A stretch of 60,109 nucleotides of DNA, filler included. It is 6 parts of 6 records of this genome, joined end to end, with 100 filler letters (N's around TTAATTAATTAA, not from the genome) between each part and the next. Parts side by side here need not be neighbours in the genome. Positions count along the whole stretch, not along the records: positions 37,668 to 45,394 come from DRR723986_1310; 5 more parts are not named here. One strand, 5' to 3'. The notes under the pieces are model-generated. The model was not told the origin of the DNA. It worked only from the letters and a program-made list of their open reading frames with translations, and ran no database searches. The translations under genes and the position numbers were made by a program. Positions 1,958 through 45,753 of this stretch are shown here, one piece after another; positions within the stretch are counted from its first letter, which is position 1; each line of letters starts with the position of its first letter.

Positions 1958-3504
1958 TCTGCGGCCATCCGGGGCGCGGCCATTGGGTGCAAGGCATCGG
2001 GCACCATCTGCGCCATAACCTCGGCCGTGCCAATCACGCCGGGCAAGCCCGCACCGGGGTGGGTGCCTGCCCCGGCCAGAAACAGGCCCGGCAGTTCCTC
2101 GGATACGTTATGGGGGCGGAACCATGCGCTTTGCAGGATGCGCGGCTCGATTGAAAAGCCAGCCCCCAAAGGCGAAAGATAGCGATCGCGAAAGGTTTCG
2201 GGGGTGAACACCAGGCTGGGGCCAAGATGGCGCCCAAGGCCGGGCAGCAACCTTTCTTCCAGCATATTTTGCATTTTCTGCCGGTAGGTTTCGGCCATTG
2301 CCGCCCAATCTGTTGGGTCGTCATGGCCCAAATGCGGCACGGGTGACAGCGCATAAAACGTATCATCCCCAGCCGGCGCCACCGTTTCATCGGTGACAGA
2401 GGGGCGGTGGACATAAAGGCTCATGTCATCGGCCAGATGCCCACGCTGGAAAATATCGCGGATATGGGTTTTATAGCGCGGCCCCACAGCAATGGTGTGA
2501 TGGCCCACATCGGGCCACAGGGCGCGCGTGCCCTTGGTGCCAAAATACCAAACAAACAGCCCCATCGACCAGCGCATGCCGCGCATTTTGGCATCGCTCC
2601 AGCGTTTTCGGGGGTGGTTGCGCAACAGCCGCGTATAGGTGTGGCCCGCATCGGCATTCGAGACCACAACATCGGCCGCAATATGCGCCCCACCCGCCAG
2701 ATCAACGCCCGAAACCCGCCCACCGGCGGTGGTGATTTCATCAACCTCGGTGCCCATCAACACCTGCCCGCCCTGCGCCTCGATCACGCGCACCATGGCC
2801 TGCGCGATGGCCTGCACACCGCCCATGGCGTAATGCACGCCAAAGGCTTTTTCCAAGTGGCTGACCAGAATATACATCGAGGTCACATGAAACGGATCGC
2901 CGCCAATAAAGAGCGGATGAAAAGACAGGGCAAAACGCAGCTTTTCGTTTTTCACCCGACGCGCGGCATGGGCATAGACCGAACGATCGGCGCGCATCAT
3001 TGCAAATTTTGGCAAAACCTTGATCAGATCGGCCAGTTTGTGCATGGGCCTGCGGCCCAGGTCCTCGTAGCCAAACCAATAGCGCGCCTCGGCATCTTGC
3101 AAAAACTTGGTGTAGCCCGGCACATCGCCCTTGGCCAGTTTCGCCACCTCTTTCATCATGGCGTCTTCGTCTTGGCGGGCGGCAAAACGGGTGCCATCGG
3201 CCCAGCGAATTTCGTAAAACGGGTCCATCGGCACAAGGCTGACATCGCGATCGAAATCGCGCCCACAGGCGGCCCACAGATCGCGCAAGCCCTGTGGCAC
3301 GGTGACAATGGTTGGCCCCAAATCAAAGCGGTGCCCCTCTTGGGTGATAGACGAGCCGCGCCCGCCCGGCTGATCTAGCCGGTCAATCACCGTCACCTCA
3401 TAGCCCTTGGCCCCCAGCCGCATGGCAGCTGCCAACCCACCAAGCCCGGCACCAATGACAATGGCACGCGAGGGCATCTGCGCAGAGCGCGGCCTAGCCG
3501 GCAT
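1954..3504 (-). CDS. crtI: Phytoene desaturase
   Basis: VIGAGLGGLAAA FAD motif, FDLGPT, GAGTHPGAGLPGV; 4-nt overlap with crtB; GGAGG upstream. Confidence 0.97.
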   Translation of the reverse strand: MPARPRSAQMPSRAIVIGAGLGGLAAAMRLGAKGYEVTVIDRLDQPGGRGSSITQEGHRFDLGPTIVTVPQGLRDLWAACGRDFDRDVSLVPMDPFYEIRWADGTRFAARQDEDAMMKEVAKLAKGDVPGYTKFLQDAEARYWFGYEDLGRRPMHKLADLIKVLPKFAMMRADRSVYAHAARRVKNEKLRFALSFHPLFIGGDPFHVTSMYILVSHLEKAFGVHYAMGGVQAIAQAMVRVIEAQGGQVLMGTEVDEITTAGGRVSGVDLAGGAHIAADVVVSNADAGHTYTRLLRNHPRKRWSDAKMRGMRWSMGLFVWYFGTKGTRALWPDVGHHTIAVGPRYKTHIRDIFQRGHLADDMSLYVHRPSVTDETVAPAGDDTFYALSPVPHLGHDDPTDWAAMAETYRQKMQNMLEERLLPGLGRHLGPSLVFTPETFRDRYLSPLGAGFSIEPRILQSAWFRPHNVSEELPGLFLAGAGTHPGAGLPGVIGTAEVMAQMVPDALHPMAAPRMAAE

Positions 3505-36200: not shown

Positions 36201-36689
36201 ATGTTTAAGGTTGGGGAACGGAACCAGGGCGAGTCTCGGGCATGTATCAGCGTGCCTGTGAAATTTGCCTTTGCTGCATTCCTCACCGTGCTGTTTTTCT
36301 CCGCATCCAGTGACGAAGCCAGAGCTGATCTGCGCCTTTGCAACAAGACCGACAGTCAGGTTGGTGTAGCCATCGGCTACAAGGACAAGACCGACTGGGT
36401 CACCGAAGGCTGGTGGAACCTTGCTTCCAATTCCTGCGAGACCCTGGTACCCGGGGCGCTGGTGTCACGATACTATTACATCTACGCAGTTGATTATGAC
36501 CAATTCGGCGAATGGGGTGGCCGGGCGTTCATGTGCACCCGGGAAAAGGAATTCACCATTCGCGGAATTGAGGACTGTGTGGCTCGCGGATTCGAACGGA
36601 CAGGCTTTTTTGAAATCGACACGGGCGAACAGAGCAGCTGGACGGTCCAGCTGACCGAACCCGTGCAACAGGGGACAGGTGGGCGATGA
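36201..36689 (+). CDS. DUF1036 family exported protein
   Basis: ADLRLCNKT...TEGWW...YYYIYA...DCVARGF...IDTGEQ; upstream of pyk; start uncertain. Confidence 0.85.
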
Positions 36690-37567
36690 GGCGTAACCGG
36701 CGAGTCAAAATTCTTGCAACTCTCGGACCCTCCTCCTCAGAACAAGACATCATCGAAAAATTGTATCGCTCCGGTGCGGACGTGTTCCGCATCAACATGA
36801 GCCATACCGATCATGATCGTCTGAAGATGCTCGTTGAACGCATCCGTTCTGTTGAGGAGAAGGTTGGACGACCAATCGGCATTCTGGCCGATCTGCAGGG
36901 ACCCAAGCTGCGTGTGGGAACGTTTGCCGACGGCCCGGTCATGCTGGAAAACGGCGCAACGTTCACGCTGGACGCCGACAAGTCCGGCGGCAGTGTCGAC
37001 AGGGTACACCTGCCGCATCCCGAAATTCTTCAGGCTCTCGAGCCGGGCCACCGCCTGCTGCTCGATGACGGCAAGATCCAGCTCAAGGTTCTGGAAGCCG
37101 ACCGCACCAGGGCCGTGACGGAAGTCGTCGTCGGCGGCAAGCTGTCAGACCGCAAGGGCGTCAGCGTTCCCGATTCGGAAATCGCAACAAGCGCCATGAC
37201 CGAGAAGGACCACAAGGACCTGATCGCCGCCCTCGACCAGAACGTCGACTGGGTAGCCCTGTCCTTCGTGCAGCGCCCGGACGACATTGCCGAAGTGCGC
37301 AAGATCACCCGTGGCCGCGCCGGCGTCCTGGCCAAGATCGAAAAGCCGCAGGCCATCGGCCGGCTGGACGAGATCATCGAACTGTCCGACGCCATCATGG
37401 TTGCCCGTGGCGACCTGGGCGTGGAACTGCCTCTGGAACAGGTTCCCGGCCTTCAGAAGCGCATCACCCGCGCCTGCCGTCGTGCCGGCAAACCGGTCGT
37501 GATCGCCACGCAGATGCTGGAATCCATGATCAACGCACCGGTGCCGACCCGCGCCGAGGTGTCCGAC
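36686..37567 (+). CDS. pyk: Pyruvate kinase (3' truncated)
   Basis: [40 protein letters not shown]. Confidence 0.97.
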
Positions 37568-37667
37568 NNNNNNNNNNNNNNNNNNNNNNNNNNNNNNNNN
37601 NNNNNNNNNNNTTAATTAATTAANNNNNNNNNNNNNNNNNNNNNNNNNNNNNNNNNNNNNNNNNNNN
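37568..37667. other. Artificial contig spacer
   Basis: N44-TTAATTAATTAA-N44. Confidence 0.98.
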
Positions 37668-38329
37668 TGGGTCTTCTCCATCTGCCGCTTGACGCGGTTT
37701 TTGATCTTCCGCTCCATCTGCAGCATGCCCATCTCGCTCTCCATGAGCGCGAAGACCTTTTCGAGGCGTTCCTTCACGTCCGTGAGTTCGAGCAGTTCCT
37801 GCTTGTCGGAGAGTTTGACAGAGAGGTTCGACGCCACCGAGTCGGCCAGGCGGCCGGCATCGGTCATGGCCGCAATCGTGCCCACCGATTCCGGCGGGAT
37901 CTTGCGGTTCAGCTTCACGTAATTCTCGAACTGCTCCTGCACGGCACGCATCAGGGCCTGCACGTCGGAATTGTCCGTTTCGGCTTCTTCCAGCGTTTCG
38001 ACTTCGGCTTCGAAATAGTCACCGCGATCGATCAGCTCATTTACGCGCGCACGTGTCTTGCCTTCGACCAGCACTTTCACGGTGCCGTCGGGCAGCTTCA
38101 GCAGTTGGAGGATGGTAGCGATCGTGCCGGTTTCGTGCACGTCATCGGAGCCGGGATCGTCGATCGCAGCATCCAGCTGGGCCACCAGCATGATTTCATT
38201 GTCTGCCTCTTCGATCATTTCGAGGGCGCGAACCGACTTGTCGCGGCCCACAAAGAGCGGGGCGACCATGTCGGGAAAAACCACGATGTCCCGAAGCGGC
38301 AACACCGGAAGGTTCTTGGTCTTTGGCAT
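37668..38329 (-). CDS. lon: Endopeptidase La, N-terminal part (3' truncated)
   Basis: LPVLPLRDIVVFP, LFVGR, QLLKLPDGTVKVLVEG, RVKRQMEKT. Confidence 0.96.
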
Positions 38330-38416
38330 GTAACTGCCTCCTTCGTATTATGGTCCCGCCTGGCGGCGACCATGTGACCCTACCTGCCAATGATGACGGG
38401 AGTCGGGCGATGTACC

Positions 38417-38447
38417 AGATGTGGAGAGTGGCAACGGCCGCTTCAAC
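38417..38447 (-). promoter_or_regulatory. Putative RpoH (sigma32) promoter of lon
   Basis: Minus strand reads GTTGAA-N17-CCACATCT, close to the alphaproteobacterial heat-shock consensus, about 90 nt upstream of lon. Confidence 0.6.
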
Positions 38448-38495
38448 CCGGCCCCTGCGCAACAAAATTGTGATTTACCCCGCCCCTGCCCGCAA

Positions 38496-39797
38496 TCAGG
38501 GCGCTGCGGCCCGCCATGCCTTTGCGGCAGCCTTTTCCGATTTCTGATTGGCCAGAAAGGCCGACAGGACGCCAAGTTTCTCATCTGGCTCCCCTCCCGC
38601 ACCGAGCCGTTTCAGCTGCTCATAATACCACCCCATGGCGCCGAAACCGTTAAGCGCCTTGACGAGTTTGATCGGTGAGTGCGGCCCCAGCAGGCCCGGC
38701 CCGATGCGTAGTTTCTGTTCCCACCGGTCCAGCGCATCCTGCGTGCCGTCCAGCAAGCGGGTCGGCGCAGCCGTATCGACACAAAGCGGCCGGCCAAGGC
38801 CGATCAGGTCCGCCTCGCCTGCCGCCAAGGCGTCATTCATCGCGGCGACAGTGCGGAAACCGCCGGTGACCATCAGGGGCATCTTCGCCCGGTCCTGCAC
38901 GGCGCGGGCATATTTCAGGAAATAGGCCTCCCGCGCGCGGGTCGACTCGGCGACCGGCTGGTCGAAGGCCGGCTGCAGGCCTTCCTGGTCCATCATTTTC
39001 GGCTGCTCGTAATTGCCGCCGGAAATCTCCACGAAATCAACGTTCAGCGTATCGAGGAGGTCGATCACGCCGAGGCAGTCCTCAAAGCTGAAGCCGCCTT
39101 TCTGGAAGTCTGCCGAATTCAGTTTCACAGACACGGAAAAGCCGGGGCCCGCCGCCGCCTTCGCCTCTTCCACGCAGGCGACCAGCAATCTTGCCCGGTT
39201 TTCAAGCGGGCCACCCCATTCGTCCTGGCGCTGATTGGCCAGCGGGGACAGGAAGGAGGACAGGAGGTAACCATGGGCGGCATGGACCTGAATACCGTCA
39301 AACCCGGTCTGTTTCGCGACTGTCGCGGCCCGGCCGAAACCTTCGATCACGGCCTGGATCTCGTCCGCCGTCATGGCGCGGGGCGATCCGAACTGACCGC
39401 CCGGCAGGCCGAGCGCCACAGGGCTTGGCGCAGCCGGCCGCGGATTTACCAGTTTCGGCGTCTGGCGCCCGGCATGGCTGACCTGCATGACCAGCGCCGC
39501 GCCATGGCTTTTCGCCGCCTTGGCCCAGCGGGCGAACCCGTCCAGTTCCTCATTCGAGACCTTCGGCCCGATGACGACATTCCCCACCTGTTCGAGGTGG
39601 TCATGGTCGATCTGGACATTGCCGGTGATGATGCCGCCAAGACCGCCTTCGGCCCAGCGCCGATAGAGCGTGACATGTGCCTCAGTGACCCGGTTGCGCG
39701 AATCAGCCAATCCCTCTGTCATTGCCGCTTTCACAAGACGGTTGGGAAATGTCAGCCCGCTGGCCAGGGTTAATGCAGTGTTAATCGTGGCAGTCAT
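38496..39797 (-). CDS. NADH:flavin oxidoreductase (OYE family)
   Basis: NRLVKAAMTE, HAGRQ, HAAHGYLLSSFLSP, KLNSADF; start trimmed to MTATINT. Confidence 0.92.
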   Translation of the reverse strand: MTATINTALTLASGLTFPNRLVKAAMTEGLADSRNRVTEAHVTLYRRWAEGGLGGIITGNVQIDHDHLEQVGNVVIGPKVSNEELDGFARWAKAAKSHGAALVMQVSHAGRQTPKLVNPRPAAPSPVALGLPGGQFGSPRAMTADEIQAVIEGFGRAATVAKQTGFDGIQVHAAHGYLLSSFLSPLANQRQDEWGGPLENRARLLVACVEEAKAAAGPGFSVSVKLNSADFQKGGFSFEDCLGVIDLLDTLNVDFVEISGGNYEQPKMMDQEGLQPAFDQPVAESTRAREAYFLKYARAVQDRAKMPLMVTGGFRTVAAMNDALAAGEADLIGLGRPLCVDTAAPTRLLDGTQDALDRWEQKLRIGPGLLGPHSPIKLVKALNGFGAMGWYYEQLKRLGAGGEPDEKLGVLSAFLANQKSEKAAAKAWRAAAP

Positions 39798-39851
39798 TGA
39801 TGTTCCCCCAATATCGACACTGACTCGTGACGCCCTTAAGGGAGACCATAA

Positions 39852-41855
39852 ATGGCCGCCGCCAAGCAAGCAAAGCTGTTCGACCAAATGAGCTCCGACA
39901 CGTCCGGTTACTCCGCCAAGGACATTGAAGTCCTCGAAGGGCTTGAGCCTGTCCGCAAACGCCCCGGTATGTATATCGGCGGCACGGACGAGCGCGCCTA
40001 TCACCACCTCTTCGCTGAGGTGCTGGACAATGCGATGGACGAAGCCGTCGCCGGCCACGCCAACCGGATCGAGATCGATCTCGACGCCGAAGGCTACCTG
40101 ACCGTCACGGACAATGGCCGCGGCATTCCGGTCGACCCGCACCCGAAATTCCCCAAGAAATCCGCCCTCGAAGTCATCATGACCACGCTGCACTCGGGCG
40201 GGAAGTTCTCCGACAAGGCCTATGCCACAGCGGGCGGCCTGCACGGCGTCGGCATCTCGGTGGTGAACGCCCTGTCCGAGCATGTCGAAGTAGAAGTCGC
40301 GCGCGACAAGCGGCTATATCGCCAGTGCTTCTCCCGCGGACTCGTCGAAGGCAAGCTGGAGAAGGTCGGCGCAGCGCCGAACCGGCGCGGCACGTCGGTG
40401 AAGTTCAAACCTGACCACCAGATCTTCGGCGACAAGATGCGCTGGCGCCCGGCGCGCCTGTTCCAGATGGCGCGCTCGAAGGCCTATCTCTATCGCGGCG
40501 TCGAAGTGCGCTGGAACTGCGACCCGTCCCTCCTTCCTGAAGATTCCAAGATCCCGGCTGAGGCTGTCCTCTCCTACCCGAATGGCCTCGCTGACCAGTT
40601 GGCGGAAGTGTTCGGCGGCAAGGCGACGATCACCGAAGCGCCGTTCACCGGCCTTGTCGACATGGGCGCCGAGGGCAAGGTGGAATGGGCTATCGCGTGG
40701 ACACAGGCCGGCTTCGGCGAGAGCGACGGCTTTGCCCGCTCCTACTGTAATACGATCCCGACACCCGAAGGCGGCACGCACGAGGCGGGCTTCCGTTCGG
40801 CGATCACCAAGGGCCTGCGCAATTTCGGTGAGCTGACCGGCAACAAGAAAGCCGGCGACATCACCGCTGACGACATCATGGGCCATTCGGGCCTGTTACT
40901 GTCTGTCTTCATCCGCGGCCCGGAATTCGTCGGCCAGACGAAAGACAAGCTCTCCACCACCGCTGCCTTCCGCCTCGTCGAGAACGCTGTGCGGGACCGG
41001 TTCGACCACTGGCTGGCCGGCAGCCCGAAAGAAGCCGACAAGCTGCTGACCTGGGCGATCGACCGCGCCGATGAGCGCGCGCGCCGCAGGAAACAGAAAG
41101 AAATCAACCGCAAGTCCGCAACCAAGAAGCTGCGCCTGCCCGGCAAGCTGGCGGACTGTTCGGAAAAAGGCCCGGACGAGACCGAGCTGTTCCTCGTCGA
41201 GGGAGACTCGGCTGGCGGCAGCGCCAAGCAGGCGCGCGACCGGAAAACGCAGGCCATCCTGCCGCTGCGCGGCAAGATCCTGAACGTCGAGAGCGCCTCG
41301 CTCGACAAGATGATGGCCAATCAGGAGATCAACGATCTCGCCCTGGCGCTCGGCACCCAGCTCGGCAAGAAATTCGCCATCGATGACCTGCGTTACGAGC
41401 GCATCATCATCATGACCGACGCCGACGTGGACGGCGCCCACATTGCGGCGCTGCTGATCACCTTCTTCTACCGGATGACGCCGGGACTCATTGAATCCGG
41501 ACGACTTTTCCTGGCGATGCCGCCGCTCTACAAGCTCTCCAACAAGGGCACGATCGTCTATGCGATGGACGATGAGGACCGCGCGGCGAAGATGAAAGAG
41601 CATTTCAAGCCGAACCAGAAGGTCGACATGACGCGCTTCAAGGGTCTCGGCGAGATGAACCCGGCGCAGCTGAAAGAGACCACGATGAACCCGGCCACCC
41701 GCACGCTCGCCCGCGTGACGCTGCCGGATTCCATGGACGAGCTGACCGAGATGAAGCCCGCCGAACTCATCAACACGCTGATGGGCAAGAAGGCTGAGCT
41801 GCGCTTTCGCTTCATTCAGGAAAACGCGGCCTTCGTGGAAGACCTGGACATTTAA
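39852..41855 (+). CDS. parE: DNA topoisomerase IV subunit B
   Basis: EVLEGLEPVRKRPGMYIG, GGLHGVG, LPGKLADC, VEGDSAGGS, MTDADVDG; 667 aa, shorter than a proteobacterial GyrB. Confidence 0.93.
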   Translation: MAAAKQAKLFDQMSSDTSGYSAKDIEVLEGLEPVRKRPGMYIGGTDERAYHHLFAEVLDNAMDEAVAGHANRIEIDLDAEGYLTVTDNGRGIPVDPHPKFPKKSALEVIMTTLHSGGKFSDKAYATAGGLHGVGISVVNALSEHVEVEVARDKRLYRQCFSRGLVEGKLEKVGAAPNRRGTSVKFKPDHQIFGDKMRWRPARLFQMARSKAYLYRGVEVRWNCDPSLLPEDSKIPAEAVLSYPNGLADQLAEVFGGKATITEAPFTGLVDMGAEGKVEWAIAWTQAGFGESDGFARSYCNTIPTPEGGTHEAGFRSAITKGLRNFGELTGNKKAGDITADDIMGHSGLLLSVFIRGPEFVGQTKDKLSTTAAFRLVENAVRDRFDHWLAGSPKEADKLLTWAIDRADERARRRKQKEINRKSATKKLRLPGKLADCSEKGPDETELFLVEGDSAGGSAKQARDRKTQAILPLRGKILNVESASLDKMMANQEINDLALALGTQLGKKFAIDDLRYERIIIMTDADVDGAHIAALLITFFYRMTPGLIESGRLFLAMPPLYKLSNKGTIVYAMDDEDRAAKMKEHFKPNQKVDMTRFKGLGEMNPAQLKETTMNPATRTLARVTLPDSMDELTEMKPAELINTLMGKKAELRFRFIQENAAFVEDLDI

Positions 41856-41986
41856 GGCAGGTGCCGTACCGGCGCCTCGCGCCTCACAGGAACCAGGCTC
41901 CGGGCGAGCCGGCCTTTTTGTAATTTGTTGACTTGCGGCCCGTCCGCCCGAACACTCCCCTCATAAAAATAAGGGGAGGAAAAACA

Positions 41987-42409
41987 GTGTACTCACAGAA
42001 AGACTGGCTGCTCATCTTCGGGGCTGGCCTGTTCCTGCTGGGCCTCGTCACAGGCTTTGTCGGGCCGCTTTTGCTCAATCCGCGGATGGGCCTGTCCTCG
42101 CATCTGGAGGGCCTGATGAACGGCACCTTCCTGATTGCCGTCGGCGCGATCTGGGACCGGGTCCACCTCGGCCCGGCGCTCAAGAAGACGGCATTTGGCC
42201 TGTTCCTGTTCGGCACGACCGCGAATTGGGCGACCGTTTTCCTCGCCGCGGCCTGGGGCGCGAGCGCGCTGATGCCGATCTCCGGCGCGGGCCATACGGG
42301 CACGCCGTTTCAGGAAAATATCATCGCGACGCTGCTGATGGTGCTGTCTTTCGCCATGCTGATCGCGACCGCACTGATGCTCGCCGGGCTCCTGCGCAAA
42401 CGCGCCTGA
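41987..42409 (+). CDS. Four-TM membrane protein, StyC (styrene oxide isomerase)-like
   Basis: GTG start after GGGGAGG; four hydrophobic helices; SSHLEGLMNG resembles the H-x5-NG heme-ligand segment of StyC. Confidence 0.6.
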   Translation: MYSQKDWLLIFGAGLFLLGLVTGFVGPLLLNPRMGLSSHLEGLMNGTFLIAVGAIWDRVHLGPALKKTAFGLFLFGTTANWATVFLAAAWGASALMPISGAGHTGTPFQENIIATLLMVLSFAMLIATALMLAGLLRKRA

Positions 42410-42504
42410 GGTGGTGGATAAGGGCCTCGCCGGACCATGTAAAACACCGTGTAAAGACCGTGTATGGACCATTTATACGCGGCTAGCGGGGTGCTCCTAG
42501 GCCT

Positions 42505-42615
42505 TCTGGAGCCGACAATGAACAGGATCGCCACCAGCGCATCGACACAGTCATAGACCGTACCATAGGCGACATAGACCTCCCTGTGGCGCGGCATCGT
42601 AGTACACTTTTGTTC
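42505..42615 (-). pseudogene. Possible YrhK-like membrane protein remnant
   Basis: RHREVYVAYGTVYDCVDALVAILFIVGS resembles a YrhK-family N-terminus, after which similarity stops. Confidence 0.35.
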
Positions 42616-42720
42616 GTTCGGAACGGCTCTCCCGGGTTTGAAGCGAGGCACTTGGCGCAGCGGCCCGTAAATCAGGTGGCGGCACCCGGTCGGTCCACTA
42701 GCAATTCAGTTTTCAAACTT

Positions 42721-43137
42721 TCAGGAAGTCTCCACTTGATGGGCGGCAACACTTACATCCTTCTCAACGAGTGTGCCCCATTCTCCTCTGCCTTCTCGAC
42801 ATCTCAATACTAACTTTCCAGACTTATCAATCGAAATCGGTATTGGAGGAGTAGCAAATAGATCAGGTTCAGTTCCGTTTGCATTTAGTTGTAATTCGAC
42901 CCCGGATTTCGGCTCGTCATTTAGACAGAATTGAAATTCCAAATCAAAGACCCCTGTTGTCTTTGGAATAAGCTCACAAAAGAGTCGGAGCATAATTTGG
43001 CCTGGAATTTGGGATAATATAATGCTGTAGGAATACACCCCTATCAGTATGTACTTTCCCGTATCTTCTCTTCTTACATCGTCACAGAGAATGGGGTTTC
43101 TGAGCACGATGTTTTTAAGCTCAACATGACCACTCAT
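42721..43137 (-). CDS. Beta-rich hypothetical protein (DUF6941-like), third gene of low-GC operon
   Basis: ILCDDVRREDTGKYILIGVY motif with alternating beta-strand pattern; ATGA overlap with the upstream gene. Confidence 0.75.
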   Translation of the reverse strand: MSGHVELKNIVLRNPILCDDVRREDTGKYILIGVYSYSIILSQIPGQIMLRLFCELIPKTTGVFDLEFQFCLNDEPKSGVELQLNANGTEPDLFATPPIPISIDKSGKLVLRCREGRGEWGTLVEKDVSVAAHQVETS

Positions 43138-43613
43138 CTGGTTCCGACCCCTGATACAGATACTGTAGTTCCATGCCGCGTGCTCGTGGTGGGCAAAGAC
43201 CTATCTGAAATATGTACCGTACCCGAACTTGTTTGTGTTGGCGACGACACGTGAATGGCCGGAGCGGAAACATGACCATAGTCTATGGCCCACTCGTGAG
43301 CAAAATTGGGAGTCAGTCGATCATCAAACTTTACGATATTGCAATCCATCTCCGCATCGAGAGACAACAATAAGTCACTAAGCGTGTCCAAAGTCAGATT
43401 TGATGGTTGTGACAACCACCTTGTAATTTGAGATGGGTCTTTTTTGAGTTTTTCAGCGACAATCTTTTTGGTAATCCCAGTTTCCTCAGCTTGCTGCTGG
43501 AAAAAGAGGATCAATTCGGAGAAAAACCGATTGCGAGTGCGCTCTCTTTGGTAGAATAATTCGCGATCGCAAATAGGTTCCACGGCACTACCTTCATTTA
43601 AAATATTTTCCAT
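43134..43613 (-). CDS. XRE/Cro HTH protein (putative antitoxin) with disordered Ser/Thr-rich C-terminal tail
   Basis: GITKKIVAEKLKKDPSQITRWLSQPSNLTLDTLSDLLLSLD is an XRE HTH pattern; the ATG at 43613 overlaps the upstream gene by 20 nt. Confidence 0.8.
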   Translation of the reverse strand: MENILNEGSAVEPICDRELFYQRERTRNRFFSELILFFQQQAEETGITKKIVAEKLKKDPSQITRWLSQPSNLTLDTLSDLLLSLDAEMDCNIVKFDDRLTPNFAHEWAIDYGHVSAPAIHVSSPTQTSSGTVHISDRSLPTTSTRHGTTVSVSGVGTR

Positions 43614-44103
43614 CCAAAGCTCCACTAACCAGGTCTTTAATCTCTGTACTGTCCAAAGGTTTGTAGGTGTGGCAAAGAGCTCTCCATTCGGCTTTGGCCC
43701 GAGACTTCGCATCTTTCCACGCCTTGGATTCAAACTCTCCCAGTTGACATCTGAATTCGTGGTGAGTTGCCACGAAGACATCCTTTTCTGCAAAGAAACC
43801 GAGCACCCGAATGGACGGAGTTGGTCGCACTGATCGAATCTCCCAAACGCAATCACGTGGAGGATGCAGCAAATAAAGGTACTTTGGATCGATAGGCTGA
43901 CCTTCTACAAAGCGCTCTAAAGTGGCTCGAAGCTGCGCTACACGAAGGTCCCATTCAGGGGCTCCAATAGGAGAATTGAGAACATCCCACAGTTCCTCTG
44001 ACACAAACATCATCCGCCTCGGTGAAGTGCCGGGCCTCAAAGGCAAAAGAGGGAACAACATTCCCTCATCAACCCTGTGTTTCAATGTAGCTCTAATTGA
44101 CAT
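43594..44103 (-). CDS. Putative RelE/HigB-like toxin
   Basis: LHPPRDCVWEIRS...SIRVLGFF...VFVATH matches the RelE/ParE-fold beta-sheet pattern; directly upstream of an HTH gene; alternative TTG start at 44112. Confidence 0.65.
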   Translation of the reverse strand: MSIRATLKHRVDEGMLFPLLPLRPGTSPRRMMFVSEELWDVLNSPIGAPEWDLRVAQLRATLERFVEGQPIDPKYLYLLHPPRDCVWEIRSVRPTPSIRVLGFFAEKDVFVATHHEFRCQLGEFESKAWKDAKSRAKAEWRALCHTYKPLDSTEIKDLVSGALDGKYFK

Positions 44104-44112
44104 AAAAGTCAA
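44097..44112. promoter_or_regulatory. Palindromic putative operator over the toxin start codon
   Basis: TTGAC-ataaaa-GTCAA. Confidence 0.55.
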
Positions 44113-44264
44113 CCTAAATGATTCTACTCATCTGCAATCTAAGCTTTATCATTACGCCACCTTAAGTCGACAAAAACTACCCCTAACAATTACACGCACG
44201 ACAACAAGAATTTCAAAGGCCGTCTTCAATTGCCTCCCTCGCCGTTCCACCCTAAATGCTCTTC

Positions 44265-45394
44265 ATGAGCAAAAATCTGAAAATCCTGGTCGCGCAGCTC
44301 AATCCTGTGGTGGGCGACATCAGGGGGAACCTTGAGCTGGCGCGCGGGGCCTATGCCGAGGCGAACGACAAGGGCGCTGACCTGCTTGTCCTCTCCGAAC
44401 TGTTCATCCTTGGCTATCCGGCCGAGGATCTGGTGCTGAAACCGGCCGCCGTGGAAGACTCCATGAAGGCGGTGCAGGCCCTCGCCGCGGAGACAAAAAA
44501 CGGCCCAGCCGTGATTATCGGCAGCCCCTGGATGGACGGGGCGAGGCGGCACAATTCCGCCGTGCTGCTGAAAGATGGCGCGGTGGCCGGGCGCTATGAC
44601 AAGCGCGAGCTGCCGAACTATGGCGTGTTCGACGAGAAGCGCATCTTCGATGCGGGCGAAGGCCCCCTGCCCGTGTTCGACCTTGGCGGCATTCCAGTCG
44701 GCATCGCGATCTGTGAGGACATCTGGTATCCGCGCGTGCCGTCTGGGCTGGCCGAGGCGGGCGCCGAAATGCTGATCGTGCCGAACGGCTCCCCCTGGCG
44801 CCGCACCGTGCAGGTGGAGCGGCACACTAGCTTCTCCGCCTGGACCAAGACCGGCGTGCCCTACCTTTTCGTGAACCAGGTGGGCGGGCAGGACGAACTG
44901 GTCTTCGACGGGGCGAGCTATGCCGTCGATTTCGACGGGACGGAGCATCAGCTGCTCGGCGATTTCGTCACCGGCACGGCGCTGGTCAATTTCGATGGCG
45001 AGACGCACCAGTTTTCAAGCGAGGCGAAGGCAGAGCTGACCAGCGGCTGGGAAGCCGAATACCGCGCGGCGGTGATGGCGCTCGGCGATTACGTCAACAA
45101 GAACCGCTTCCCCGGCGTCGTGCTGGGCATGAGCGGCGGCATCGACTCGGCGCTGACGGCGGCGATTGCCGTGGACGCGCTGGGGCCGGAACGCGTGTGG
45201 TGCGTGATGCTGCCGTCGAAATATACGTCCTCTGACAGTCTGGAAGACGCGAAGCTGTGTGCCGAGGCGCTCGGCGCGCGCTATGACACGATCAATATCC
45301 GCCCCGGCGTGGACGCGCTGGACGAGATGCTGAGCGAGCAGTTCGCCAGTACGCAGCCGGACACGACGGAAGAGAACATCCAGTCCCGCCTGCG
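44265..45394 (+). CDS. nadE: Glutamine-dependent NAD+ synthetase (3' truncated)
   Basis: AQLNPVVGD, KRELPNYGVFDEKR, ICEDIW, SGGIDS, ENIQSR. Confidence 0.96.
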
Positions 45395-45494
45395 NNNNNN
45401 NNNNNNNNNNNNNNNNNNNNNNNNNNNNNNNNNNNNNNTTAATTAATTAANNNNNNNNNNNNNNNNNNNNNNNNNNNNNNNNNNNNNNNNNNNN
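45395..45494. other. Artificial contig spacer
   Basis: N44-TTAATTAATTAA-N44. Confidence 0.98.
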
Positions 45495-45753
45495 CACCGC
45501 CACCACAATTGTCGCCGCCCCCGTTGGCATTCAGATGGCAAATACGCTCGGGGTGTCCGCCGATCCATTCTTAATGGCTGTGGCCGTTGCCGCCTCTGCC
45601 GCGTTCCTTACCCCCATTGGGCACAAGAACAACACGCTGATCCTAGGCCCCGGCGGCTATCAATTCGGCGATTACTGGCGCATGGGCTTGCCGCTGGAAA
45701 TCCTGATCATTGCCGTTTCCATCCCCGCCATTCTGGTCTTTTGGCCAATGTAG
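45495..45753 (+). CDS. SLC13 family permease (C-terminal fragment)
   Basis: AASAAFLTPIGHKNN...GPGGYQFGDYWRMGLP...FWP. Confidence 0.88.

Follow-up and report, generated by a model that had tools for sequence, protein, structure and literature searches.

The DNA analysed here, referred to as the window, is a stretch of 60,109 nucleotides (nt; filler included) that joins six parts of one genome, and its positions 37,668 to 45,394 come from the record DRR723986_1310. Within that record lies a group of three co-oriented, overlapping genes on the minus strand, in the following called the triad (Table 1). Genes 1 and 2 overlap by 20 nt, with the ATG of gene 2 lying inside gene 1, and genes 2 and 3 meet in a common ATGA. 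Since its homologues begin at a conserved 'MSI', gene 1 most likely starts at the ATG at 44103 (169 aa, 'MSI...'). The GC content of the triad is 0.458 versus 0.614 in the flanks. A first-pass annotation, made by a model from the sequence alone, had described three co-oriented genes with 20-nt and ATGA overlaps in an AT-richer islet, and both overlaps and the difference in composition were reproduced; the motifs it had read in genes 1 and 3 (VWEIRS...IRVLGFF and CDDVRRE.GK..LIGV) are present in the translated genes. It is very probable that the triad is a genuine three-component toxin-antitoxin (TA)-like module with a HigB-fold toxin. The best explanation of the locus as a whole is a mobile type II TA module of three translationally coupled genes, whose DUF6941 partner works on the antitoxin, a reading that, taken in all its parts, is about an even call.

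Table 1 Features of the triad locus, in window coordinates (GC profile computed in 300-nt windows)
Feature	Position	Strand	Description
Gene 1	43594..44112	-	HigB-type (RelE/ParE superfamily) toxin-like protein; 172 aa from TTG at 44112
Gene 2	43134..43613	-	HigA-like XRE helix-turn-helix (HTH) antitoxin candidate; 159 aa, ATG start 'MEN...'
Gene 3	42721..43137	-	Divergent DUF6941 protein; 138 aa
Presumed promoter/operator of the triad	44113..44255		Between gene 1 and the divergent NAD synthase gene; inferred from position only
AT-richer islet with the triad	42650..44300		GC 0.40-0.50 versus 0.59-0.66 in the flanks

A word-based search returned 167 homologues of gene 1, mostly of about 170 aa and none with a Pfam domain. 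The mean column identity of the family alignment is 58%, the core carries the motif VWEIRS...PSIRVLGxF...DVFVAT, and residues R57, Y78, E91, R93, R102, R121 and K136 are invariant. The HigB-like core (residues ~32-150) follows an N-terminal extension that is conserved and some 30 residues long (MSIxxxI...MLFPLxPxAxG), and a C-terminal tail of about 20 residues completes the protein. The AlphaFold2 (AF2) model (pLDDT 74.9) fits a RelE-type fold (an antiparallel sheet packed on N-terminal helices), and its best Foldseek matches are HigB toxins (prob 0.97-0.99, E ~0.02). Superposition with VIA aligned 107 residues of the core (32-150) with the whole of Streptococcus pneumoniae HigB (6af4_C; Z 10.3, root mean square deviation (rmsd) 2.6 Å); the corresponding comparisons yielded Z 8.4 for Mycobacterium tuberculosis HigB1 (7awk) and Z 4-5.6 for structures of RelE, YoeB and YafQ. 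As modelled, gene 1 belongs with the RelE-fold proteins of HigB type, to which it adds an N-terminal extension specific to its family, and an overlapping gene of HTH antitoxin type lies directly downstream, as in toxin-first modules. No NCBIfam, PADLOC or PHROG match was obtained for gene 1, and neither the gene 1 profile nor that of gene 3 gave a meaningful match to the sequences of solved structures.

The HTH of gene 2 is located at residues ~43-94. Pfam HTH_3 matches below threshold (E 1.3e-3), the PADLOC models PDC-M64C and PDC-M64B match the HTH region at 5e-10 and 1e-6, respectively, and a PHROG transcriptional regulator matches the protein at 4.6e-6. Homologues keep an N-terminal helix with 'YYRQRxKNR', the HTH and then 'IVRFxDRxxPNxxHPL'. 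Beyond this last motif, the window's gene 2 continues in a variable tail of about 50 residues rich in Ser, Thr and Pro, and in its homologues the tail is 35-60 residues long, poorly conserved and rich in Ala, Ser, Thr, Val and Pro. Among 51 unique tails, all from loci with gene 3, an alternating hydrophobic pattern (phi-x-phi-x-phi) falls within the last 16 residues in 26, versus 14.6 +/- 3.3 for shuffled tails and 7/51 at mid-tail.

Gene 3 matches the Pfam model DUF6941 (PF22091) below the gathering score and over its N-terminal half only (E 4.3e-3, 17.8 bits versus 27); 21 of 26 family members match the model, the best at 3.2e-10, and the copy from Rhizobium tropici reaches 46.7 bits. An hhalign comparison of the family profile with canonical DUF6941 gave 98.2% (E 4.7e-14, 126 columns), and the nearest ESM Atlas clusters are DUF6941 as well (0.95). 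Judged by these profile matches, gene 3 is a divergent DUF6941 member. Its N-terminal hairpin bears the motif CDDVRxExxGKxxLIGVY. The AF2 model (pLDDT 95.7) is an all-beta Ig-like sandwich of 12 strands and 0 helices. SecB has long helices, and no Pfam match of gene 3 to SecB was found at E<=1. A kinship with PDE6-delta/RhoGDI was considered, as these proteins head the Foldseek results (E ~1e-4), and was dropped, because TM-scores (TM) of ~0.4 and an rmsd of ~9 Å indicate a generic sandwich. Further fold matches include the Wzt carbohydrate-binding domain and GH2 Ig-like domains (best VIA Z 8.8, with many unrelated Ig-like domains), and uncharacterised phage proteins of like size match better (TM 0.65-0.76). 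A catalytic Cys in the CDD motif was likewise rejected, this residue being Ala in many canonical DUF6941 members. The family profile retrieved 6517 representative clusters (50% identity, E<=1e-3), the best 150 of which are nearly all single-domain proteins of 118-174 aa. DUF6941 is named in no paper of the literature searched and has no function on record. The first-pass annotation had read gene 1 as RelE/HigB-like, gene 2 as an HTH protein with a long tail and gene 3 as beta-rich, DUF6941-like and distinct from SecB; Foldseek and VIA, the HTH_3, PADLOC and PHROG matches together with the poorly conserved aligned tails, and the all-beta model with its hhalign and SecB results bear out these three assignments in turn.

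The triad recurs as a unit. Among the 41 relatives of the nearest genome compared, it was found in one, the same-class genome G037, and not in the other 40. A pattern scan of species-representative genomes added 19 loci, for a total of 20; these 19 stem mostly from metagenome-assembled genomes (MAGs) of Alphaproteobacteria, and also from Bradyrhizobium sp. LjRoot220, a Woeseiaceae MAG and an Anaerolineales MAG. Gene 2 lies downstream of gene 1 in 20/20 loci and a gene 3 homologue follows in 19/20, the exception being L019, with weak gene 3 matches at L013 and L016. The nearest start of gene 3 overlaps the gene 2 stop by 4 nt in 10/19 loci, by 1 nt in 2/19 and by 11 nt in 1/19, and lies 1-16 nt after it in the remaining 6/19. 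A metagenome scan yielded 80 gene 1 loci, 70 of them non-duplicate; where at least 700 nt of downstream sequence was available, gene 2 was present in 44/45 and gene 3 in 42/45. The exceptions to the triad are L069, with another third open reading frame (ORF) that overlaps the gene 2 stop, and the degraded loci L129 and L133. The survey for recurrence suggested by the first-pass annotation thus came out in its favour, on plasmid and phage (see below) as well as in genomes and metagenomes, and two of the outcomes it had named as speaking against it, no co-occurrence elsewhere and a gene 3 that models as SecB, were not observed.

At L019 and L069, an unrelated ORF stands in the position of gene 3, and the gene 2 tail is longer and different. 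The third slot looks exchangeable. The ORF in this slot encodes 103 aa at L019 (4105-4413) and at least 152 aa at L069 (1052-1507, open at the contig end); checked for likeness to SecB, the two showed no Pfam family.

Searches by tblastn located full triads on mobile elements. One lies on the conjugative plasmid pRtrCIAT899b of R. tropici CIAT 899, amid insertion sequence (IS) and integrase genes, and another in the temperate Synechococcus phage MinM1, directly downstream of an S24-peptidase/HTH repressor gene. Each of the 18 genome loci measured has a triad of lower GC content than the DNA on either side (median difference -0.12). By its distribution and composition, the triad is a mobile module. 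Further tblastn searches returned nothing significant for gene 3 against plasmids or for canonical DUF6941 against phages. A pattern scan of IMG/VR viral contigs gave no member of the gene 1 family; the alignment of gene 3 varies too much for a scan of this kind. The plasmid triad (L143, NC_020061.1) is surrounded by IS21 and IS66 elements and an integrase gene; its gene 2 homologue is an open 152-aa frame (2967-3422) between two annotated hypothetical proteins and is missing from the PLSDB gene table, a table known as incomplete. The phage triad (L144/L145, ON981384.1, 22210-23607) is annotated as hypothetical / HTH / hypothetical; MinM1 also has an integrase and a ParB-family gene, and the literature searched holds nothing on it as a cyanophage.

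These findings bear on the possibility that gene 3 is chiefly a sensor of a phage- or stress-derived protein, the module being an abortive-infection switch in which gene 3 plays no part in folding or stabilising the antitoxin. Mobility of the module, its AT richness in every genome locus measured and its presence in a temperate phage beside a repressor gene and on a conjugative plasmid would all fit such a switch, as would the phage proteins of the same size and similar fold. A precedent is given in PMC11980606, where the major tail protein of phage lambda breaks the antitoxin-chaperone contact of Escherichia coli HigBAC and the toxin becomes active. The window, however, offers housekeeping flanks and no defence-island context, PADLOC has no model for genes 1 or 3, viral contigs did not yield the gene 1 family, and DUF6941 often stands alone in Chloroflexota. 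We consider this possibility improbable as the chief role of gene 3; it is compatible with the best explanation, a three-gene TA module with a partner acting on the antitoxin, and the two are not mutually exclusive.

At the window locus, a GyrB/ParE-type topoisomerase B subunit gene (39852-41855) occupies the lower-coordinate flank and a NAD synthase gene (44256 onward) the other. The first-pass annotation had placed the islet between the parE-adjacent gene and nadE, with no integrase or transposase, and this placement holds: a scan of the region from 30 to 58 kb covered 21 ORFs with a minimum length of 180 aa, and none of them encodes either enzyme. No tRNA was detected within the window, and direct repeats around the islet amounted to short matches at chance level. 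Upstream of gene 1, no operator-like inverted repeats of at least 8 nt were found, and a promoter/terminator scan gave sites no more numerous than in shuffles. parE and nadE are not adjacent in the nearest genomes compared, and insertion borders are not definable from synteny. Between the topoisomerase gene and the islet, a 158-aa ORF without Pfam match (41933-42409, plus strand), hydrophobic and membrane-like, is convergent with gene 3. A run of N at ~45400-45540 breaks the NAD synthase ORF, whose C-terminal translation is a run of X, and is the sole cause of an apparent GC dip there. Further away, a 309-aa ORF (36686-37615, plus strand) covers the pyruvate kinase barrel domain only (profile positions 2-301 of 328); it is short for a pyruvate kinase and may be truncated or go on in another frame.

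Indirect signs of toxicity come from the disruption of gene 1. In G037, the transposase gene of an IS has broken gene 1 in two and left genes 2 and 3 whole: at this locus (L001, G037:C1, 211-2649), an N-terminal piece (211-408) and a C-terminal piece (1567-1854) enclose a 339-aa transposase ORF on the opposite strand (405-1424). Of the copies internal to a metagenome contig, 8/57 are split over frames for gene 1, versus 0/54 for gene 2 and 0/40 for gene 3 (gene 1 compared with the other two genes pooled, Fisher p = 3e-4). The counts are of hidden Markov model (HMM) matches at E<=1e-3, a threshold at which fragments of genes 2 and 3, the less conserved ones, may escape detection. Assembly errors may also lie behind some of the splits, and genes 2 and 3 look degraded too in L133 and L134. 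This pattern suggests, indirectly, that gene 1 is toxic.

The distribution of DUF6941 beyond the triad was examined next to that of the triad itself. By the Pfam model, the family occurs in 3/401 sampled Pseudomonadota genomes and in 4/401 of the same class; the model under-counts this branch, because it missed the triad copy in G037. Chloroflexota contain it in 127/301 genomes (123/297 without four unpublished genomes, from which no locus used here comes). Two Alphaproteobacteria loci carry TA pairs other than that of the triad: L022 encodes HicA-HicB-DUF6941, its HicB having ~45 residues beyond the ribbon-helix-helix (RHH) domain, and L027 a ParE-like protein, HTH_3 and DUF6941 with an ATGA overlap; at L023, L025 and L026, DUF6941 occurs without a TA pair. 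The Chloroflexota arrangements place DUF6941 first, followed by RHH and PIN genes (VapBC, L035), by an unassigned ORF of 75-80 aa and ParE (the orthologous loci L036, L038 and L045), by an unassigned 83-aa ORF and YafQ (L039), or by HicA and HicB (L043 and L028). In 7/30 Chloroflexota loci, corresponding to about 4 independent lineages, DUF6941 is followed after 3-81 nt by a TA pair in the same orientation. The chance of such a neighbour per random gene is estimated at roughly 0.05-2.6% (from 0-5 ParE and 2-41 PIN copies per genome, with the upper end tripled for other TA families), so the observed proportion is a clear excess. With the window's triad counted, DUF6941 adjoins the gene at the antitoxin position in 6/7 gene arrangements. 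At L046-L050 (Chloroflexota), a conserved ORF of ~150 aa without Pfam family and with a hydrophobic C-terminal half precedes DUF6941 in the same orientation, its end lying ~52-93 nt before that gene, and could encode a further DUF6941 partner.

Together, recurrence and context allow a weighing of the view that the triad is a non-toxic regulatory or accessory cassette of mobile elements, made up of a nuclease-inactive, Gp49-like RelE-fold protein, an HTH regulator and a passenger DUF6941. The toxicity of gene 1 is indeed something we infer, the MinM1 copy sits in a lysogeny-control region, the Pfam name Gp49, whose threshold gene 1 does not reach, points to phage-derived proteins, and most DUF6941 genes are not TA-linked. 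A passenger, however, would not be expected to stay with its neighbours in 61/65 loci (19/20 genome and 42/45 metagenome loci), to keep overlapping stop and start codons or to turn up next to six further TA architectures; disruption affects gene 1 only, with genes 2 and 3 intact, and the Arg, Glu, Tyr and Lys residues of gene 1 are invariant across the family. A non-toxic cassette is accordingly the reading to which we give least credit.

For the preferred three-gene TA module, whose anatomy, folds, recurrence and mobility are shown by the data above, the following mechanism is proposed. Gene 1, going by its fold, would most likely cleave mRNA on the ribosome. Gene 2 would be the HigA-like HTH antitoxin and autorepressor of the gene 1 system, a role suggested because of gene order, HTH domain and overlap with gene 1, and it would neutralise the gene 1 product. 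As an integral third component, gene 3 would most likely bind the antitoxin and determine how stable or available it is, and in so doing would play the part of the SecB-like chaperone of toxin-antitoxin-chaperone (TAC) systems on an unrelated fold. Its probable docking site is the short beta-strand-like segment that ends the variable tail of the antitoxin. Loss or titration of the grip of gene 3 would free the toxin, and a phage protein or stress could be the cause; the data indicate no trigger of toxin release.

An action of DUF6941 on the antitoxin is argued for, indirectly, by five observations: genes 2 and 3 are translationally coupled, DUF6941 adjoins the antitoxin-position gene in nearly all arrangements, the gene 2 tail ends strand-like, tails differ where the third gene is swapped, and one protein fuses the two genes. 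In this protein (P0151, 235 aa, on one 1205-bp contig, found among the best 150 of the 6517 profile matches), the gene 2 core (MENTS...HTH...RFSD) is in frame with the gene 3 domain and the tail is absent. A word search for other fused or longer DUF6941 relatives found none, which is weak evidence. A prediction of the complex of genes 2 and 3 scored 0.00, with alignments not used and controls not run, and so favours neither view. That gene 3 acts on or controls the antitoxin as proposed, through a presumed contact with gene 2, seems to us plausible and yet somewhat less likely than its contrary.

Alternatively, gene 3 could act on the toxin, either by binding the N-terminal extension of gene 1 as a co-inhibitor or as an activator or targeting factor. 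PasC, a third component that strengthens neutralisation, would be the comparison. The conserved extension of ~30 residues is absent from the solved HigB toxins superposed, genes 1 and 3 are nearly always found together, and at L043/L028 DUF6941 adjoins the HicA toxin gene, all of which would suit a toxin-directed partner. Yet the other toxins adjacent to DUF6941 are of ordinary size (HicA 79-86 aa, ParE 88, YafQ 96, PIN 149), hence DUF6941 needs no toxin extension; translational coupling is with gene 2 and not with gene 1, and the sole fused form joins gene 3 to gene 2. We therefore rate a toxin-directed gene 3 as unlikely, and about on a par with a gene 3 that is chiefly a sensor.

A number of points weigh against the best explanation, in which the DUF6941 protein works on the antitoxin of a HigB-type toxin. 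Gene 1 falls below the gathering score of Pfam Gp49 (PF05973; E 0.1, 13.1 bits versus 23.9), and RelE-fold proteins are not necessarily toxic. Barely half of the gene 2 tails pass the strict strand pattern, one of 500 tail shuffles beat the observed count (27 versus 26), and the window's own tail (…GTTVSVSGVGTR) fails the pattern. The CDD motif of gene 3 is not a conserved catalytic site, given the frequent Ala in canonical members. P0151, a singleton, could be a fusion of natural origin or reflect an assembly error. As many as 23/30 Chloroflexota loci have no TA neighbour and instead include thymidylate kinase, LOG, KAS, sulfatase and EPSP synthase among their neighbours, so that DUF6941, with its presence in so many Chloroflexota genomes, also lives outside TA systems. 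At L043/L028 it adjoins the toxin gene. The middle ORFs of the ParE and YafQ cases are short (75-83 aa), lack a long tail and match no Pfam family even at E<=1, and they are antitoxins by position only. A simple tail-addiction model sits poorly with these Chloroflexota cases, in which the operon opens with DUF6941 and the middle ORFs are short. At E<=1, PADLOC gives no match to genes 1 or 3, and the data gathered contain no direct tie of the module to phage defence; the chaperone or defence reading of the first-pass annotation is taken here as a hypothesis.

A wider claim would be that DUF6941 represents a new and widespread class of TA partner, an Ig-like sandwich that captures a short strand at the end of the antitoxin by strand addition and gates the stability of the antitoxin. 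Such partners would have been recruited independently, in two or more phyla as well as on phages and plasmids, to HigBA-like, HicAB, ParE-type, YafQ and VapBC modules, as a functional analogue of SecB(TA) with an unrelated fold and possibly as the point where phage proteins trigger the toxin. We regard this generalisation as doubtful.

The closest known parallel is given by TAC systems such as HigB1-HigA1-SecB(TA) of M. tuberculosis and HigBAC of E. coli. Both the triad and TAC systems have the gene order toxin, antitoxin, third gene, a HigB-fold toxin (M. tuberculosis HigB1 is among the best structure matches of gene 1) and an HTH protein in the antitoxin position. The variable tail of gene 2 may correspond to the C-terminal extension (ChAD) of TAC antitoxins. 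According to PMC5105189, SecB chaperones have been enlisted by antitoxins of the HigA, MqsA and HicB families, the TAC members of which have variable C-terminal extensions, and SecB is mostly free-standing, with more than 7% of SecB sequences being TA-linked; in the third-gene family of the triad, too, most members stand free and some have joined one of several TA families. The third protein, in contrast, is here an all-beta Ig-like sandwich of the DUF6941 family and not SecB, as the missing Pfam match, the helix-free model and the DUF6941 kinship agree. The SecB-like chaperone that defines TAC systems was looked for and is missing, and the triad is therefore not a TAC system; it is proposed, by analogy, to work like one. 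Some TA pairs adjacent to DUF6941 lack an antitoxin extension and have DUF6941 first in the operon, a further difference from TAC systems that counts against the proposed mode of action. The TAC-like reading of the first-pass annotation stands with regard to the toxin-first order, the HigB fold, the tailed HTH protein and the non-SecB third gene; a strict TAC analogy does not, given the short untailed Chloroflexota ORFs and the many TA-free loci.

Two-gene HigBA modules (S. pneumoniae, 6AF3/6AF4; Vibrio cholerae HigBA2) share the toxin-first order and the XRE-HTH antitoxin with the triad, and 6af4_C is the closest solved fold. Gene 1 differs in being ~50 residues longer, by its N-terminal extension and C-terminal tail, in being only 18% identical to 6af4_C and in remaining sub-threshold for Gp49, and a third gene is almost always present. 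Canonical DUF6941, common in Chloroflexota and mostly stand-alone, aligns with the gene 3 family, whose member in the window stays below the threshold of the Pfam model. The PADLOC candidate system PDC-M64 is matched through the HTH region of gene 2, which matches models B and C, whereas gene 2 runs ~65 residues past its match to the 93-position PDC-M64C profile; PDC-M64 is named in no paper of the literature searched. The novelty check against PADLOC that had been suggested along with the first annotation left genes 1 and 3 without a model and gene 2 with these HTH matches only.

Other modules join a two-gene TA core and an accessory gene in one operon, namely paaR-paaA-parE, omega-epsilon-zeta and pasABC. 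The third genes of such modules, where known, encode DNA-binding regulators or small helical proteins, and we know of none that is a DUF6941 or an Ig-like sandwich. The Caulobacter higBA locus reportedly also combines a TA core with one accessory gene, here a downstream transcription factor. Titles and abstracts of the tripartite-TA literature contain nothing like the triad; the supplementary tables of PMC11980606 and PMC10440598, which lie outside this search, may list such triads.

TAC systems are the best understood TA switches wired to a third protein and have recently been shown to sense phage proteins. To our knowledge, the chaperone role of such a third protein has so far been confined to SecB-like proteins. 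The triad defines a HigB-like toxin family covered by no Pfam, NCBIfam, PADLOC or PHROG model, and it gives DUF6941, a family without known function, a testable role. If DUF6941 controls antitoxins, accessory control of TA modules would have arisen at least twice, on different folds, and DUF6941 would be a marker for further three-gene TA or defence systems.

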